A program made the translations under genes and the position numbers. The notes under the pieces were generated by a model. It saw nothing but the letters and a program-made list of their open reading frames with translations. It ran no database searches and was not told where the DNA came from. 64,000 nt of DNA from a virus: IMG/VR virus record IMGVR_UViG_3300033273_000499; one strand, given 5' to 3'. Numbering within the stretch: the first letter of the stretch is position 1; every line of letters starts with the position of its first letter. Below are positions 7,379 through 13,953 of this stretch, in pieces.

Positions 7379-8473
7379 TTATGAAAGTGCGATTGACATT
7401 GCGACTGACCTGGTATCCACGTAACGCTTGTTCGTTGCGTCGGTGTTGGAAGTTGCCGTTGCGACGTTAGTAACTTTATTATTTAGTACATTTACAGTAC
7501 TTCCTACACTCAAAGTTCCTGTAACGGAAGCATTTTGAGCAACGTTAATACTATCACTCAGTGCCACAGTTACTACATTATTACTAACGTTTGTAGTCAG
7601 GTTATTGTTAAAGAATACAGTATTTGCTACACCAATAACTGCTGAGTTACCTCCAAATACTAGTTTTTCACCAGTTACTGCTGAGGGGATTCTTCCAGTT
7701 AATTGATCCGCATCAAGTGTTCCATCGAAAGATGCTGCGGTTACAATTCCAGTGATTGATGCTCCACCACCAACAACAGAGAAGTTTCCTTGTGCTGTTA
7801 GATTGACGAAGTTACCATCTCCTACTGCTACTCCAGCTGCTGCTTCATCAGTCTTACCGTAAACAGTAAATCCAATTCTGGAACCATCATCTGATGAACA
7901 TACTAACTTCTGACCATTTGAGAGTTTGATTCCCCTTCTTTCATAAGAATCAGTTGGTTCAATTTTTACATTATATTCAATGTATTCAGAACTCTCAAAG
8001 TCTGCAACTGGTCCACTTGTAATTCCAAGTCTTGCTTTTGATGCAAATGATTGGAAATTATAAGCATTGATATTAACTACTGTAGAAGTTTCTGCTGGTG
8101 CTTCATATAGTAATACTCTTTTATTCTTCTCGGTGGTTACTGATCTGAGAATACCTGAATCATTAGTATCATCAATTACTTCACCATACAGGAGAAACTG
8201 TGTATTGGCATGACTTGAATGGACAACAAGTTTTTGCCCATTGCCAAAAAACAAATCATTAGTTTCTAAAGTTTGCCCTGCAGGGATAACTCTATTATAA
8301 TGGATATAGTTTAGATTATCTGCCCCTGTAGTAATTGCTACCCTTACTTTTACATCTTCAAAGTTCTTGTGAGAAATAGCAACTTTCCCATCAATCAAGT
8401 CAGTGGCAGATATATAAAGAACAGTATTTTTACTCGGATTTGGTATAACAGATCCTAAGAGGCCAAAAGCCAT
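7379..8473 (-). CDS. Fibre-associated structural protein with two tandem ~100-aa N-terminal domains
   Basis: 364 aa. Two repeats ending NGQKLV..S...YG; fibre-like C-terminus NKVTNVATATSNTDATNKRYVD and SVAMSIALS; late promoter upstream. Confidence 0.65.
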   Translation of the reverse strand: MAFGLLGSVIPNPSKNTVLYISATDLIDGKVAISHKNFEDVKVRVAITTGADNLNYIHYNRVIPAGQTLETNDLFFGNGQKLVVHSSHANTQFLLYGEVIDDTNDSGILRSVTTEKNKRVLLYEAPAETSTVVNINAYNFQSFASKARLGITSGPVADFESSEYIEYNVKIEPTDSYERRGIKLSNGQKLVCSSDDGSRIGFTVYGKTDEAAAGVAVGDGNFVNLTAQGNFSVVGGGASITGIVTAASFDGTLDADQLTGRIPSAVTGEKLVFGGNSAVIGVANTVFFNNNLTTNVSNNVVTVALSDSINVAQNASVTGTLSVGSTVNVLNNKVTNVATATSNTDATNKRYVDTRSVAMSIALS

Positions 8474-8477
8474 GGAA

Positions 8478-8484
8478 CTAAATA
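8478..8484 (+). promoter_or_regulatory. Late promoter variant (CTAAATA) facing hldD
   Basis: ctaaata on the plus strand 40 nt upstream of the hldD ATG. Confidence 0.4.
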
Positions 8485-8497
8485 GTAAATTTAAAAT

Positions 8498-8505
8498 TAT
8501 TTATA
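8498..8505 (-). promoter_or_regulatory. T4 late promoter consensus TATAAATA
   Basis: Plus-strand tatttata; 25 nt upstream of the ATG at 8473. Confidence 0.75.
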
Positions 8506-8523
8506 CTAGAGGAAAAAGGTGAG

Positions 8524-9315
8524 ATGATTGTATTAACAGGCTCAAAAGGGTTTATCGGAAAAAAGTTCCTTGAAGCACTAAAGAAGCAGGGAAAAGAAGT
8601 TATCGAAGTAGAAAAGAACGATAGTTGGCATTGGAGAACATACTTCAACAAATGGGAAGAGGTTGAGTGCATCATCCATCAAGGTGCAATGTCATCAACT
8701 ACAAATACAAATTTGAGAGAAATATTTACATTTAATATTGAATTTAGTGAGTGGTTATTTGAAAAAGCAGCAAAATATAACATTCCAGTAAAATATGCCT
8801 CGTCTGCTTCCGTGTATGGAAACGAACAAGGCATCATCAATCCTCTTAATTATTATGCACTCTCAAAAGTGACTACTGATTATTGGGTTCAAGATAATAT
8901 TGATAGATTTTCTTTAATCCAAGGATTTAGATACTTTAATGTATACGGTGATGGTGAAGAGCATAAGGGAAACCAAGCAAGTCCCGTTAGTAAATTTGCA
9001 AAAGAAATTGAAGAGACTGGAAAATTAAAGTTGTTTGAAGGTTCTCAAGATTTCTTACGGGATTTTATTTGTGTTGATGATATTGTTGATGTTGTTCTAA
9101 ACAACAACAAAGGTTCTGGCATTTATGACCTTGGAACTAGTTCTCCTGTAAGTTTTCAATACGTAGCAGAATGCTGCATAAAAAAATATGGTGGAGATAT
9201 AGAATACATTCCATTCCCCGACCATTTAGTAGGTAAATATCAAACTTATACTTGTGCCAAGAAAGAGTGGAGTAACCACAAGTTCAAAACTATCAAAGAG
9301 TATCTCCTGGGGTGA
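8524..9315 (+). CDS. hldD: ADP-L-glycero-D-manno-heptose 6-epimerase (extended SDR)
   Basis: TGSKGFIG NAD-binding motif, HQGAMSSTT, YASSASVYG, YALSK (YxxxK), GFRYFNVYGDGEEHKGNQASPV, RDFICVDD, YQTYTCA; only convincing plus-strand gene in the window. Confidence 0.85.
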   Translation: MIVLTGSKGFIGKKFLEALKKQGKEVIEVEKNDSWHWRTYFNKWEEVECIIHQGAMSSTTNTNLREIFTFNIEFSEWLFEKAAKYNIPVKYASSASVYGNEQGIINPLNYYALSKVTTDYWVQDNIDRFSLIQGFRYFNVYGDGEEHKGNQASPVSKFAKEIEETGKLKLFEGSQDFLRDFICVDDIVDVVLNNNKGSGIYDLGTSSPVSFQYVAECCIKKYGGDIEYIPFPDHLVGKYQTYTCAKKEWSNHKFKTIKEYLLG

Positions 9316-9673
9316 CACGGATACTATCAGAGTCAAAATGCTCTGTACTGAACTCAAACAGCTCTGTGTCTTCCATACCATACATCTGATGTCTCATACC
9401 AACTGGAACATGGAACTTATCTCCACGTTCCAGAATTGCTATGGAACCTAGTTCTTGATTGTCTGACCAACCATATTTAATTTTAATTTTTCCACTCTGA
9501 ACGTAGAAAACTTCATCCTTTTTATTATGATAGTGCCATGAGCACTTCTTTCCCTTAGCAATATACAGAAGTTTTCCGCAGTACTGCTCACAATTTACAA
9601 TCCATTTTTCAAATCCCCACCCTTTAGGTACGAACTTAATATCTTGCCCTGCTCTGGGTCTAGAAGAAGTCAT
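9293..9673 (-). CDS. Cupin, mannose-6-phosphate isomerase / lyxose ketol-isomerase-like
   Basis: KGWGFEKWI, CSWHYHNKKDEVFYVQSG (HxHx4E), FHVPVGMRHQM cupin metal-binding motifs. Confidence 0.75.
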   Translation of the reverse strand: MTSSRPRAGQDIKFVPKGWGFEKWIVNCEQYCGKLLYIAKGKKCSWHYHNKKDEVFYVQSGKIKIKYGWSDNQELGSIAILERGDKFHVPVGMRHQMYGMEDTELFEFSTEHFDSDSIRVTPGDTL

Positions 9674-9986
9674 TGTCGGTTACCGCCTTATCATCTATAT
9701 AGTAGTCACCTGATGGTTTTCCCATAACAAGTTTATGAAACTTACAACCCCAGGTATTCAACTGCTCTAATGTCAGTTCATAAAAAACCTCAGATGCCAT
9801 CTCAGCATCGTCATCAAATCTACCCATACCTCTTGCGGTCAGGTAAACGATTGTATTTCCATTGTCGTACAACTCATTGATTTTAGCAATCCTTTCTTCA
9901 TATGGAACTGCAGATGAGTAATCCCCAACATACTCTGGGTGATGGCAAATGGTTCCATCAACGTCTATTACATATTTTTTCGACAT
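9660..9986 (-). CDS. HAD-superfamily phosphatase (capless, capsule-biosynthesis phosphatase-like)
   Basis: VIDVDGTIC (motif I DxD), YLTARG (II), GKP (III), YIDDKA (IV); ATG at 9986 preferred over the track start at 10028. Confidence 0.75.
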   Translation of the reverse strand: MSKKYVIDVDGTICHHPEYVGDYSSAVPYEERIAKINELYDNGNTIVYLTARGMGRFDDDAEMASEVFYELTLEQLNTWGCKFHKLVMGKPSGDYYIDDKAVTDNDFF

Positions 9987-10728
9987 CTTTTTTCTGTAAA
10001 ACGTATGTTCCTTGGTTTTGTACTGCAACTGCTGCTGCCTTATTTGCTAGAGATAATGCTCTCGATATATCACCTTCTGTCTTTAGATATCCATATGTCA
10101 ATGCTGCAAGGAAAGTGTCACCCGCACCAACAACATCATAGACTTTTACTTTCTCTGCAGGATATAAAGTGTGGTTATACACACATCCTTGACTACCTTT
10201 TGTAACAATTAAATTTTTATAATCATAAGGTTGAAGTCTATCATATTCAATGTCGTTTATTTTGATAAAGCAATTTTCTTTATCGGGAAGAACTGTTTTC
10301 TTACTATCAATAAAAACAGGAACATTGGATGATTCAACTATTTCAAATAGTTTTTTATCTGTTAGATATCCTTTGTTATAGTCTGATATGACAACAGCAT
10401 CAAACCCATTTGTCATAACAGGTAATATTAATGGTGAAACTCTAGATTCATTATCAACTCTCAACATTTGTTGATTTGATTTTTCTTCAATGAATCTAGT
10501 TTTTGTTATCTGCTCATTATTGGTTAAAAATGTAACTTCTAAATCAAATGCTTGTAGATTTAGATATACATTTCCTGCCATCCCTGCTTTAGTTTCTATT
10601 TTAGAATAGTTTAAAACAGGAACAGGTGCCTCGGGATTTAACCGTTCGCACCTGCCATAGATGTACTCATCTTCACAACTATCACCTATCAGCAATACTT
10701 TGAATAATTTTTGTTGAGGAGTATCCAT
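9958..10728 (-). CDS. PfkB-family heptose-7-phosphate kinase (stand-alone HldE kinase domain, HldA-like)
   Basis: KVLLIGDSCED...RLNPEAPVPV, GMAGNV..N, ITKTRF, RVD, VISDYNKG, DVVGAGDTFLAAL; ATG at 10728 (track start at 10740 is TTG). Confidence 0.85.
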   Translation of the reverse strand: MDTPQQKLFKVLLIGDSCEDEYIYGRCERLNPEAPVPVLNYSKIETKAGMAGNVYLNLQAFDLEVTFLTNNEQITKTRFIEEKSNQQMLRVDNESRVSPLILPVMTNGFDAVVISDYNKGYLTDKKLFEIVESSNVPVFIDSKKTVLPDKENCFIKINDIEYDRLQPYDYKNLIVTKGSQGCVYNHTLYPAEKVKVYDVVGAGDTFLAALTYGYLKTEGDISRALSLANKAAAVAVQNQGTYVLQKKDVEKICNRR

Positions 10729-11080
10729 CGATTCTATCAAAAAATTTCAGTGTTTTTGCATATTGAGACCCAATGACGGGTTTTCCCTTCCAATCAGAAC
10801 CAACAACCATTACATCTGGGTTGATTTTTTTAATTAAATCTTCTAGTTGTTTATCAGTTCCAAATGACAATACTAGGTCAACCATATCTAAGTGTTGGAG
10901 CATGAAAATCCTTTCGGATTCCACATTGATTGGACGAGAATCCCCTTTCTTTTCCTTTATCCTTTCGTCTGTATCTACAGCAACTATTAACTTTGTTCCT
11001 TGAGATTTTGCATACTTGAGGAGCATAAGATGCCCTCTGTGGAGGACATCAAATGTTCCATTTACGAAAACAGTCTTCAT
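10682..11080 (-). CDS. Heptose-1-phosphate nucleotidyltransferase (stand-alone HldE C-domain, HldC-like; cytidylyltransferase family)
   Basis: VNGTFDVLHRGH (HxGH), KGDSRPIN...ER, VVGSDWKGK..IG, RIDGYSST. Confidence 0.85.
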   Translation of the reverse strand: MKTVFVNGTFDVLHRGHLMLLKYAKSQGTKLIVAVDTDERIKEKKGDSRPINVESERIFMLQHLDMVDLVLSFGTDKQLEDLIKKINPDVMVVGSDWKGKPVIGSQYAKTLKFFDRIDGYSSTKIIQSIADR

Positions 11081-12768
11081 TCGTTGGGGACGTAGACTAG
11101 TTTTTGAATCTCAGGGAAGTAGCAATATTCAATATCACTATTCTTCAGGGTCTTAACTGCATCTTCTACTGTCTCTACGAGAGGTTCACCACCAAGATTG
11201 AACGAAGTGTTGAACAGGATTGGGACTTCACTCAACTTCTCAAAAGCATCAATGAGATTGTAGTAATGCTCGTTCTGCTCTGGAGTTACAGTCTGAATAC
11301 GGCATGTACCGTCTACGTGAATGACTGAAGGAATCTTTTCTTCTACACCTTCATGGCACTTGACAGCATACATCATGTGGGGAGTTTCTTCACGGCCAGC
11401 AAGGTCGAACCAGTCATGAACTGCTTCTTTCTTGATAGAGCAAGCAAATGGTCTGAACCATTCACGACGTTTGACTGCATTAACATGGTCCTTACCATCT
11501 TCAATCGTTGGGTCAAACAGAATAGAACGGTTGCCCAGTGCACGGGGACCACCCTCAGAACGACCCTGATACATGGTGACGATGTTGCCCTCACGGATTA
11601 GTGCTGCGATATCATCATATGAAGTATCAGTTACCTGAAGACCTTCTAGGTCTGCTTCATAACCAGTTGGATCATACTGGGGACCATAGTAAACAGACTC
11701 TTGCTTACTTGGTTCAGTAGTTTCATTAATTTGATGCCAGATATACTTAGCACCACCGATTGATGTACCACCGTCATGTGAAATTGGCTCACAATAGATG
11801 TTGAGATCGGGGAAACGATTCCAATACTTATAGTTGGCAACACAGTTCAAACCATATCCACCACAAATAACGATATTGGTTTCACCAGTCTTTTCGTGAG
11901 CAATTTCAATCAGTTCACACATACGGTCAGAAGTCTGCTCCTGAATCTTGTATGCCATGTCCTTTTGAATGTCAGTGTACTGTCCCTGTACATGCTCCTG
12001 AACATCCTTCATTAGGATTGGATAACGACCAGCATTGATTTTTGCTGCATTTGGATATGTTGGGATAATCAATTCACGATTGCCCCAACCATTTCTGAAG
12101 AAGTCAGGAAGGTCATCATTGGGTTTACCATATGGAGCAAGACCCATCAATTTACCTGCTTCGATTGCAGGGAATCCACAGTATTCGGTAACTGCTTCAT
12201 ACATTTTTGTATGACCAGGATACTCTGTTAACCAGATACCATCATCTACTTGATTGCAACCAATAGCTGCTTTTGTTCCAATATGTTTGAATACTTTCTG
12301 GAAATTTTCACCAGCACCATAATCTGCTTTATAAATCGACTCAAATTCAAACATAACATCCTCAATACCTTCGTATTGGAGGAAACTTCCTGCACCATCA
12401 GCAATGACACAAGCAGCAGTGTCGAAACCAGAGTTATAGAAACCACATGCAGCGTGCATATCATGGTGAATCAGGTCAATAAAGTGAGTTTCAAACTCAA
12501 ACTTCTTCTTAGCAAGTTTTCTTACGAATCCCTGATACATGTCCTCACCAGTCCAATCTAATTGAGGACCATGACGGTGAGTGTGGCAAACGACCAAGTG
12601 GTCAATATGGTCAACGTAATCAAATACTTTTTGAAGTCCTAGAAGGGGAGAACCATCATACTTAAATCTAGAAAGTCTTTCTTCTTCAAGATAAAAGATG
12701 ATTTCACCATCTTTCATAAGGGTTGTACTCCCGTTATGACCACGGGCAACCGATGCGATAATTGTCAT
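11077..12768 (-). CDS. O-carbamoyltransferase (NodU/CmcH family)
   Basis: EEERLSRFK, HHDMHA, GKLMGLAPYG, GGYGLNCVAN, SHDGGTSIG, GPRALGNRSIL, KRREWFRPFA, HVDGTCRIQT, NTSFNLGGEP. Confidence 0.92.
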   Translation of the reverse strand: MTIIASVARGHNGSTTLMKDGEIIFYLEEERLSRFKYDGSPLLGLQKVFDYVDHIDHLVVCHTHRHGPQLDWTGEDMYQGFVRKLAKKKFEFETHFIDLIHHDMHAACGFYNSGFDTAACVIADGAGSFLQYEGIEDVMFEFESIYKADYGAGENFQKVFKHIGTKAAIGCNQVDDGIWLTEYPGHTKMYEAVTEYCGFPAIEAGKLMGLAPYGKPNDDLPDFFRNGWGNRELIIPTYPNAAKINAGRYPILMKDVQEHVQGQYTDIQKDMAYKIQEQTSDRMCELIEIAHEKTGETNIVICGGYGLNCVANYKYWNRFPDLNIYCEPISHDGGTSIGGAKYIWHQINETTEPSKQESVYYGPQYDPTGYEADLEGLQVTDTSYDDIAALIREGNIVTMYQGRSEGGPRALGNRSILFDPTIEDGKDHVNAVKRREWFRPFACSIKKEAVHDWFDLAGREETPHMMYAVKCHEGVEEKIPSVIHVDGTCRIQTVTPEQNEHYYNLIDAFEKLSEVPILFNTSFNLGGEPLVETVEDAVKTLKNSDIEYCYFPEIQKLVYVPNE

Positions 12769-12777
12769 TGTCTAACC

Positions 12778-13953
12778 TCAATTTTTAACAGTTTCAACAA
12801 ATCCCTTCTTGGAATTTGATTTTGATTGAATTCCACTCTCCTTAAGTAGAGATTCTACCGCACTTGCAGACTTTTTGGAAGTGCCTGGAAGAGTTGCTGG
12901 TGATGCCTCACTTGGTGAAAACCCTGGCATTGGTCCTTGTGCTTCCTGTGGTGGGCAACAAGCACCTGTTGGTGCTCCATCTTGTCCAGGAAGAATAATA
13001 ACATCTTTATTCTTCACATAATATCTATTCATCAATTTATCTGTTGATTTAATGATGACATCTTCAATTGCACCATTCATTGCCATGATTCCATCATTTT
13101 GTCTTTGTGTGACTTCATCCATAGAAATGCGAATTGGATCATAGATACGTTGACCCTCACCCATATCCAAAACATCAAATTTTTCACATCCAGGATAGCT
13201 AATATTTTCCTTACATGTAGCTCCAACAACCACTACTGCTGGTGTATCAAATGAATAAGCCATATGTTGACCAACTGAGTCACATCCGAGAAATAAATCT
13301 GCTTCGGACACAATACCTGCCCACTGCCGTAAATCAATTCCTCTTGGATGTGCCACAGGGTCCTTACACCCTTCTTTGGAAAAATCAAATTCCATTTCAC
13401 CAAAATAAATTACTGCATATTTTTTCTGCAGTTTTTTGATAATACTGACTACGTTGATGAATTCAAAACTTCTTCCACTTGAATCTGTGACAAAATTCCC
13501 AACCATTTGAGAACCTCGTCCAAATGGTTGAAAGACAACAACCTTATCCTTCTTTGTCTTCTGTCTTACTTCTTCAACAATAAACTTTGCATTGATTGCT
13601 TCTTGACGAGAAAGTCTAATTGTTGGTTTTTGAAGTTCTCTTACACCTTCTCCATTAATCTGAATATCGTATGCCTGGGAAAGATTACACTTTTGATTAT
13701 AGTATTCCCAAATTCTATATGGTTCTGTTGATACTATCTCTCTATCTTTCAACTTGTCTCTAAACAAGTTTTTATGCCAACTGTCGTATGTTCTTTTAAA
13801 AAGTGTTGGGTGACCTTTAAAAAAGTCAGTGCCACCTTCCGCAACGATGATAAAATCATCATCTGGATTCTGCTCTTCATACTTCTCTAAAGCAGGAATA
13901 GCACAAATCACACGGCCAGCACCACCATTAATAAAAAATGCTTTCGATCTCAT
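12778..13953 (-). CDS. GT-B glycosyltransferase, GT9 / heptosyltransferase-like
   Basis: INGGAGRVICAIPAL N-terminal motif, VVFQPFGRG, DLRQWAGIVSEADLFLGCDSVGQHMA...PAVVV (GT9-type DS..H.A motif); heads the heptose operon. Confidence 0.7.
   Translation of the reverse strand: MRSKAFFINGGAGRVICAIPALEKYEEQNPDDDFIIVAEGGTDFFKGHPTLFKRTYDSWHKNLFRDKLKDREIVSTEPYRIWEYYNQKCNLSQAYDIQINGEGVRELQKPTIRLSRQEAINAKFIVEEVRQKTKKDKVVVFQPFGRGSQMVGNFVTDSSGRSFEFINVVSIIKKLQKKYAVIYFGEMEFDFSKEGCKDPVAHPRGIDLRQWAGIVSEADLFLGCDSVGQHMAYSFDTPAVVVVGATCKENISYPGCEKFDVLDMGEGQRIYDPIRISMDEVTQRQNDGIMAMNGAIEDVIIKSTDKLMNRYYVKNKDVIILPGQDGAPTGACCPPQEAQGPMPGFSPSEASPATLPGTSKKSASAVESLLKESGIQSKSNSKKGFVETVKN

Follow-up and report, generated by a model that had tools for sequence, protein, structure and literature searches.

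The heptose operon of a T4-like marine cyanomyovirus ends in a cupin gene

ADP-heptose is the precursor of the inner core of lipopolysaccharide (LPS) and an agonist of innate immunity (ALPK1), and the enzyme GmhA is treated as both marker and gatekeeper of the pathway that makes it. The DNA analyzed here, referred to as the window, is the whole 64,000-nucleotide stretch of the IMG/VR virus record IMGVR_UViG_3300033273_000499, and the gene in question is a small cupin at 9293-9673 on its minus strand. An earlier note, made from the letters alone, had suggested that this cupin may be a non-orthologous replacement for GmhA, the sedoheptulose-7-phosphate (S7P) isomerase that opens the synthesis of nucleoside-diphosphate (NDP)-heptose. 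The window is of the T4-like marine cyanomyovirus type: in DNA and protein searches it matched only Synechococcus and Prochlorococcus myoviruses (Sf-FS3, S-SSM7, P-SSM2, S-SM2, S-CAM1 and others) and a few uncultured marine virus contigs. The genes at the locus are the following.

8524-9315, plus strand: short HldD-like short-chain dehydrogenase/reductase (SDR), resembling ADP-glycero-manno-heptose 6-epimerase (TIGR02197, 2.6e-61)
9293-9673, minus strand: cupin, proposed S7P isomerase and GmhA analogue; 126 amino acids, ATG start (Cupin_2/Cupin_1)
9660-10028, minus strand: mini-HAD phosphatase, proposed heptose-1,7-bisphosphate 7-phosphatase and GmhB analogue (TIGR01689, 2.5e-9; HAD-IIIA, 1e-6; PHROG 1238; DxDGT motif)
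9958-10740, minus strand: PfkB kinase of the HldE domain-I type, heptose-7-phosphate 1-kinase (PfkB, 2.9e-18; TIGR02198, 2.7e-44)
10682-11080, minus strand: nucleotidyltransferase of the HldE domain-II type, heptose-1-phosphate nucleotidyltransferase (CTP_transf_like, 2.6e-20; TIGR02199, 7.3e-35)
11077-12768, minus strand: NodU/CmcH-type carbamoyltransferase (Carbam_trans_C, 2.8e-58; Carbam_trans_N, 1.3e-20)
12778-13953, minus strand: distant GT9 (heptosyltransferase-like) protein (weak TIGR02201, 7.8e-6, and RfaQ, 1.3e-5; PHROG 8954, 1e-169)

The minus-strand operon runs from the GT9-like gene through the carbamoyltransferase, nucleotidyltransferase, kinase and mini-HAD to the cupin, which is last, and its genes overlap. 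The cupin gene shares 14 nucleotides at its start with the end of the HAD gene, and 23 nucleotides at its 3' end with the convergent HldD-like epimerase gene. An identical gene set in the same order is found in P-SSM2, in Sf-FS3 and in most of 139 viral contigs. The cupin is translationally coupled into this conserved cyanomyovirus operon. Competing families score lower for two of its neighbors: the next best kinase family after TIGR02198 reaches 7.6e-14, and the SDR scores 207 bits with TIGR02197 (cut-off 274.6) and only 37 bits with GalE. The start codon of the mini-HAD is uncertain, being either TTG at 10028 or an ATG 14 codons downstream.

Kinase, nucleotidyltransferase, HAD phosphatase and HldD-like epimerase all adjoin the cupin, so that candidates exist here for all remaining steps of ADP-heptose synthesis, and all operon genes apart from the cupin received family matches that assign them. 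Both points had been made in the earlier note, and both hold. Because the operon lacks only an isomerase, and the cupin alone among its enzymes is without assignment, the cupin is the natural candidate for the missing step.

With regard to the GT9-like protein, the weak matches to heptosyltransferase models (~1e-5) span ~70 residues, and a C-terminal Pro/Ser/Ala-rich tail of ~60 residues lies outside the coverage of the PHROG profile.

The cupin is a relative of D-lyxose/D-mannose isomerases

The protein encoded at 9293-9673 is a genuine metal-binding cupin, as had been proposed. It matches Cupin_2 (PF07883) with E = 9.6e-9 and 35.3 bits against a cut-off of 27.2, Cupin_1 also matches, and both cupin motifs are present (HYH..KDE..G and G..P.G..H). 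An AlphaFold2 model is a confident β-barrel (pLDDT, i.e., predicted local distance difference test, 85), which superposes on many cupins with Z scores of 14-15. The family is large, with 3,533 representatives at E ≤ 1e-3 and 1,179 at E ≤ 1e-10. Positions W19, G20, E22, C32, K34, L36, H49, K52, E54, G61, H95, E107, S109 and D116 are invariant, and K17, N27, Y31, G33, S45, H47, G84, T110 and S117 are nearly so, H47 being found in at least 90% of the sequences.

When the family profile was searched against the PDB, D-lyxose ketol-isomerases ranked first (2y0o, 2.8e-9; 7nzo, 9.7e-9). Archaeal cupin-type mannose-6-phosphate (phosphomannose) isomerases (PMIs; ~1e-5, with 7zvm at 1.2e-5) and CapF (3e-5) came further down the list, after some oxygenase-type cupins, and no FdtA or QdtA structure appeared at E ≤ 0.1. 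What the alignments to the lyxose isomerases share goes beyond the generic cupin motifs, i.e., NxxxYCxKxL, HxH, KxE, the motif-2 His and E-x-S. In TsLI of Thermofilum, Mn2+ is held by H75, H77, E88 and H143, E88 abstracts the proton, and K86 stabilizes the cis-enediol (PMC8378251). Profile alignment to 2y0o and 7nzo places H75, H77, K86, E88 and H143 of TsLI on H47, H49, K52, E54 and H95 of the cupin, and the catalytic set of the D-lyxose/D-mannose isomerases, two His, a Glu and a further His on the metal with a Lys two residues before the Glu, is complete. We propose from this alignment that H47, H49, E54 and H95 are the metal ligands and K52 the catalytic Lys. The family-specific K17, W19, T110 and D116-S117-x-R119 may bind phosphate.

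The D-lyxose/D-mannose isomerases (PF07385; B. subtilis YdaE, 2Y0O; Thermofilum TsLI, 7NZO; E. coli Z5688, 3KMH) nevertheless differ from the cupin in being 170-230 amino acids long, in having additional helices, in an insert of 6 residues that separates HxH from KxE, and in using free sugars, whereas the conserved K17, W19, T110 and D116-S117-x-R119 belong to the cupin family's own set. PF07385 did not match the window cupin at E ≤ 0.01; on several relatives and fusions it reached 19.4-27.8 bits against a whole-protein cut-off of 20.8, with no single stretch passing alone. The window cupin matched cupin families only, and neither of the SIS-fold GmhA profiles (PF13580, TIGR00441). Judged by sequence, it is a member of a distinct, unnamed cupin family that is not the GmhA family and whose nearest characterized relatives are the D-lyxose/D-mannose isomerases.

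The conversions of D-xylulose to D-lyxose, of D-fructose to D-mannose and of sedoheptulose to D-glycero-D-manno-heptose are one and the same C1/C2 isomerization, with equal configuration at C3-C4. The nearest characterized relatives of the cupin yield manno- or lyxo-configured aldoses, which by general carbohydrate chemistry is the stereochemistry required, and all of their catalytic residues are conserved in it. The likeness to ketol-isomerases and the parallel in chemistry that the earlier note had drawn are thus borne out.

By fold, the nearest structures were, in an effective tie, the epimerase domain of CapF (Z 15.1), archaeal mini-PMIs (Z 15.0), KdgF (Z 14.6) and the lyxose isomerases (Z 13.9), a comparison of a model that cannot tell isomerase from epimerase, as Z lies at 13.8-15.1 across many unrelated cupin functions. 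The top match (Foldseek 6e-9) agrees with a role after sugar activation, in which the cupin would act on an NDP-keto-sugar, as a CapF-like C3-epimerase or an FdtA-like 3,4-ketoisomerase working with the adjacent SDR, and the S7P step would fall to the host or to another enzyme. Cupin and SDR are indeed convergent neighbors with overlapping 3' ends, and CapF of S. aureus, whose C-terminal cupin is the C3-epimerase of a UDP-4-keto sugar, is likewise a metal cupin that partners an SDR in making sugar nucleotides. However, CapF is fused to its own SDR and needs a 4-keto substrate made by a dehydratase, and neither is in the phage cluster, which has no 4,6-dehydratase or 4-oxidase and whose sole SDR is HldD-like rather than a C4-reductase. 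The profile, too, lies nearer to the lyxose isomerases (~1e-9) than to CapF, and we regard a role on NDP-keto-sugars as unlikely.

The tightest superposition was to the archaeal mini-PMIs (Thermococcus 7ZVM and 7ZVY; 104-116 amino acids, root-mean-square deviation 1.5-1.6, 21-24% identity). These enzymes and the PMI domain of the type II PMI-GMP proteins (TIGR01479) resemble the cupin in size and in being single cupin domains, and they make a manno-aldose phosphate from a sugar phosphate, as is proposed for the cupin, but sequence similarity is weak (1e-5 by profile; TIGR01479 gives the window cupin 18 bits against a cut-off of 373, over the cupin core only) and their context is mannose, not heptose. 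The cupin could on these grounds be a mannose-6-phosphate isomerase acting on fructose 6-phosphate, or a broader sugar-phosphate ketol-isomerase with a main substrate other than S7P, which in the phage would feed hexose to the HldE-like enzymes or to another pathway. We consider this improbable: the phage operon is without ManB, ManC and Gmd, and its HldD-like C6 epimerase and GT9-like transferase make sense for heptose only.

Database labels of the mini-HAD and the cupin

The mini-HAD is labelled 'phosphoheptose isomerase' in GenBank, in RefSeq cyanophage records and in PHROG 1238 (window 9660-10028, minus strand; 6676-7020 in L001; 6694-7020 in L002), and the label is repeated in a genome announcement (PMC7378029). 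The cupin is labelled 'cysteine dioxygenase' in RefSeq and in PHROG 7851. Both labels look wrong, the mini-HAD appearing to be a phosphatase and not an isomerase, and between them they seem to conceal the missing-isomerase problem.

The second label would make the cupin an oxygenase, or else some other cupin unrelated to sugars that hitch-hikes in the operon. Quercetinases and a putative cysteine dioxygenase are among its weak cupin matches, and many 2OG-Fe(II) oxygenases (2OG, 2-oxoglutarate) lie nearby in cyanophage clusters. Against this, no cysteine-dioxygenase family of Pfam or NCBIfam matched the window cupin at E ≤ 0.01, so that the PHROG label alone says so. Among 80 viral loci found via the cupin, 73 have the mini-HAD and 67 the heptose kinase, and the fusions described below, together with a conserved Lys-x-Glu dyad typical of sugar isomerases, would be unexpected for an oxygenase. 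An oxygenase or a passenger is, in our judgment, a very remote prospect.

GmhA is missing from the window, from related phages and from most sampled hosts

A profile built from picocyanobacterial GmhAs was run against all six reading frames of the window and gave no match up to E = 10, in agreement with the earlier statement that the window holds no SIS-fold GmhA. The search of the rest of the genome, which the earlier note had asked for, was made on the complete relatives P-SSM2 and Sf-FS3; SIS_2 had no match in either genome, and control genomes did match. Among 50,697 phage records, a GmhA homologue was found in 12, none of them a cyanophage; the cupin was found in 35, nearly all cyanophages, and none of the 35 is among the 12.

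The hosts seldom supply the enzyme. Of the 81 genomes sampled in the Prochlorococcus/marine Synechococcus family, 16-18 have a GmhA-like gene (~200 amino acids) and 15 have HldE, i.e., most sampled picocyanobacteria have no GmhA.

The cupin is fused to enzymes of the heptose pathway

Relatives of the cupin occur as fusions with three of the enzymes that flank it in the operon. Fusions to the PfkB kinase exist in both orders (P0131, P0201, P0291, P0293, P0294), and those with an HldE-type nucleotidyltransferase (P0135, P0154, P0203 and seven more) include the commonest arrangement with a partner recognized by Pfam, nucleotidyltransferase-cupin. In P0275 and P0279 the cupin is fused to a mini-HAD, the N-terminal halves being 45-52% identical to the HAD of the window. 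The identified partners are all heptose-pathway enzymes, with two exceptions, a methyltransferase domain and a NUMOD3 motif; this is not what a PMI with another main substrate would lead one to expect. No fusion to an SDR or SIS domain was seen among the relatives.

The prevalence of nucleotidyltransferase-cupin fusions would also suit an enzyme that acts on NDP-keto-sugars. Such a role leaves unexplained the fusions to the kinase and to the phosphatase, which act two steps and one step before activation, and the lack of SDR fusions.

Two distant cupin-containing proteins were also noted. At 870-2387 on the plus strand of L330 (genome G166), a 505-residue protein joins a NeuB-family (sialic-acid-synthase-like) domain to a C-terminal cupin with weak similarity to lyxose isomerases; its architecture differs from that of the heptose cupins, and it is among the weaker matches of a phylum-level sample around genome G001. 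A 526-residue frame in L036 (15259-16836, plus strand) ends in a distant cupin match.

Cupin and GmhA may take equivalent places in viral loci

GmhA was found in none of the 139 viral loci retrieved via the cupin or the phage kinase. Conversely, among 80 viral loci retrieved via GmhA, 18 also have a heptose kinase or nucleotidyltransferase. These two-by-two viral counts are biased by the way in which the loci were found and by the kinship of the cyanophages, and more weight was given to the samples of DPANN archaea and Binataceae. One locus (L179) has the phage-type kinase, HAD and nucleotidyltransferase (42, 47 and 41% identical to those of the window); next to them comes a canonical GmhA, and the cupin is absent. 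The arrangement suggests a swap of cupin and GmhA at an equivalent cluster position, and a role of the cupin on NDP-keto-sugars would explain neither the swap nor the mutual exclusion with GmhA.

Contigs in three metagenome-assembled genomes (MAGs) labelled Proteobacteria, Bacteriovoracaceae and Thaumarchaeota (L004-L006) have genes for the phage-type kinase, HAD and cupin, with the nucleotidyltransferase in addition in L005 and L006 and with four to six SDR paralogues in all three; they look like phage DNA binned into cellular MAGs.

In DPANN archaea the cupin and GmhA exclude each other

The DPANN sample comprised 131 genomes of one phylum (that of G088); 10 carry the cupin, 33 a heptose kinase and 31 a GmhA-like gene. 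Each of the 10 genomes with the cupin also has the heptose kinase (hypergeometric p = 3e-7), and the 33 kinase genomes divide into 20 with GmhA only, 10 with the cupin only, none with both and 3 with neither (Fisher p = 3e-6); both values were calculated without regard to phylogeny. From a general PMI one would not expect this pattern, in which the cupin occurs only alongside the heptose kinase and never with GmhA.

The two isomerase candidates also take the same place in the same protein architecture. Kinase and GmhA-like domain lie in one open frame of 506-560 amino acids in G280, G320, G366 and G369, and kinase and cupin in one frame of ~447 amino acids in G331 and G355. In G320 and G369 (GmhA-like) and in G331 and G355 (cupin), the isomerase domain follows directly after the kinase, at the C-terminus. 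In three further DPANN genomes the cupin is at most ~1 kb from the kinase.

A 57-kb contig of genome G087 (L334, L335) holds a bacterial polysaccharide locus with two separate heptose modules. In the first, nucleotidyltransferase, cupin, kinase and HldD are separate genes in that order; in the second, a GmhA-like gene is joined after ~1 kb by a nucleotidyltransferase-kinase fusion and, ~2.6 kb beyond that, by an HldD-like SDR. The modules are distinct, with the cupin in one and GmhA in the other, so that there is a single isomerase candidate per module. Some 15 kb downstream is another GmhA-like gene.

Thus, the anti-correlation of cupin and gmhA in heptose contexts, proposed in the earlier note as a check, stands for the 139 viral loci and for the DPANN genomes, and it is not absolute, as a few loci and genomes hold both.

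Binataceae carry HldE and the cupin and mostly lack GmhA

A scan of genomes for the cupin gave mostly MAGs of the Binataceae, and 61 genomes of that family were sampled. The cupin is present in 58 of them and a bifunctional HldE in 60, and a convincing GmhA (>60 bits) in only 6, or any full-length SIS_2 match in 16. These tallies include four unpublished genomes (G227, G251, G253, G268), without which the cupin is found in 54 of 57, HldE in 56 of 57 and GmhA in 6 of 57. The five genomes checked have 3-7 GT9 heptosyltransferase genes each and only partial matches to TIGR00441. HldE and cupin share one operon in G238 (HldE-Gmd-cupin, L331) and in G086 (L076); in G249 they are separated by 4 kb. 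The picocyanobacteria served as a control: of their 15 genomes with HldE, 13 also carry GmhA, as a rule at a distance of a few kb, and the cupin is absent from all 15. The difference in GmhA presence between Binataceae and picocyanobacteria gives a Fisher p of 3e-5.

Several ~600-residue open reading frames (ORFs) of Binataceae have a partial SIS_2 match. They were considered as GlmS, which was ruled out by Pfam and NCBIfam: they are ~590-residue fusions of a ribokinase-like PfkB and a KpsF/KdsD-type SIS domain without CBS (L085 1246-3000, minus strand, in G001; L083, L084, L086, L087). The fusion is probably an arabinose-5-phosphate isomerase for the synthesis of Kdo (3-deoxy-D-manno-octulosonic acid).

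Observations that weigh against an S7P isomerase

Besides the indifference of the fold comparison described above, several observations weigh against assigning the cupin to S7P. Two uncultured phage contigs, L186 and L199, have a true GmhA (TIGR00441, 197 bits) as well as a nucleotidyltransferase and a cupin 5 kb away. A GroEL-type chaperonin is encoded there as well (L199 9848-15896; L186 9917-15685); the nucleotidyltransferase and cupin genes overlap in L199 and are ~3.4 kb apart in L186, no PfkB kinase is within reach in either, and the ORFs in between match no family. The viral cupin loci are moreover closely related and represent few independent events.

In L021, a 130-kb contig from a Prochlorococcus single-amplified genome (SAG), a radical-SAM/SPASM gene, a DegT aminotransferase and the cupin stand in a row (7618-10327, plus strand). 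No heptose genes are near this cupin, and a heptose kinase was not found in that SAG assembly. The contig may be phage DNA, as a RecA/UvsX-like gene lies 2 kb away. By analogy, the DegT-cupin arrangement recalls ketoisomerase-aminotransferase pairs of the FdtA/FdtB type, in which FdtA precedes FdtB, and would allow another sugar-isomerase role, including one on NDP-keto-sugars.

The Binataceae supply most of the remaining points. Both cupin and GmhA are carried by G090 and by 6-16 of the family's genomes, and most Binataceae cupins adjoin not HldE but a cluster of GT4, carbamoyltransferase, Fcl-like SDR, GT4, cupin and Gmd. The Gmd beside the cupin is a true GDP-mannose 4,6-dehydratase equivalog (516 bits), and its presence next to a reductase-like SDR also suits a cupin acting on NDP-keto-sugars. 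Five genomes (G001-G004, G086; L326-L328) have Gmd together with a ManC of ~385 amino acids without PMI domain, and no type I PMI was found in these five. The Binataceae cupin could thus be a mannose-6-phosphate isomerase, or serve both pathways, and the PfkB-SIS fusion is a possible alternative heptose isomerase there.

A wider reading would reconcile part of this evidence with the heptose role, namely that the family is a general isomerase from ketose phosphates to manno-configured aldose phosphates. One Binataceae copy would then replace both GmhA and ManA/PMI, and the phage form would be specialized for heptose, drawing S7P from the Calvin or pentose-phosphate pools of the host. We hold this view tentatively and think it less likely to be right than wrong; it is attractive because it would account for the HldE-Gmd-cupin operons in genomes that have neither classical isomerase.

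The proposed reaction and its place in the pathway

Taken together, comparative genomics suggests that the phage cupin is an S7P isomerase, analogous and not homologous to GmhA, and we consider this assignment likely. The proposal that the cupin is a non-orthologous replacement of GmhA is supported by what the genomes show, namely the genes present, the lack of GmhA, the conservation of catalytic residues, the fusions and the complementary occurrence of the two enzymes, and from context, fusions, complementary distribution and residue conservation we infer its substrate, product and mechanism. The cupin would be a metal-dependent ketol-isomerase converting S7P to D-glycero-D-manno-heptose 7-phosphate, probably by a metal-bound cis-enediol route as in the D-lyxose/D-mannose isomerases; H47, H49, E54 and H95 would be the metal ligands, with E54 doubling as the base, and the intermediate would be stabilized by K52. 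The kinase would then form heptose 1,7-bisphosphate, the mini-HAD would strip the 7-phosphate, the nucleotidyltransferase would yield NDP-heptose, and the HldD-like SDR would epimerize its C6, after which the GT9-like transferase and the carbamoyltransferase would use or decorate the sugar.

In this scheme the cupin would share with GmhA (SIS fold; PF13580, TIGR00441; EC 5.3.1.28) both the proposed reaction and the position in the pathway. GmhA, too, adjoins the heptose kinase or is fused to its C-terminus, and in related loci of viruses and archaea one is found in place of the other. Their folds are unrelated, GmhA having a SIS Rossmann-like fold of ~190 amino acids and the cupin a β-barrel of 126 amino acids whose metal site is probably His3Glu, in combination with a Lys-x-Glu dyad.

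We found no description of a cupin-type S7P isomerase in literature searches. In a commentary on Tang et al. (Science, 2024), heptose enzymes are described as having been surveyed across kingdoms by homology to known enzymes, and the phosphatase as appearing absent from viruses (PMC11461863). This outcome fits a survey by homology in which the mini-HAD and the cupin were overlooked.

Implications for heptose synthesis in viruses and microbes

Phosphoglucose isomerase exists in a SIS form and in a cupin form. If the assignment made here is true, S7P isomerization would likewise have two evolutionary solutions, and genome surveys based on GmhA would under-count heptose producers, in Binataceae and DPANN archaea as well as in cyanophages and other viruses. 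Two labels now widespread in PHROGs and in reference genomes of cyanophages, 'phosphoheptose isomerase' for the HAD and 'cysteine dioxygenase' for the cupin, would be put right as well. For the cyanophages themselves, the heptose operon would be self-sufficient and able to draw on S7P, an intermediate of the Calvin cycle and the pentose-phosphate pathway, and this self-sufficiency would hold even in the majority of sampled hosts, which have no heptose pathway of their own.

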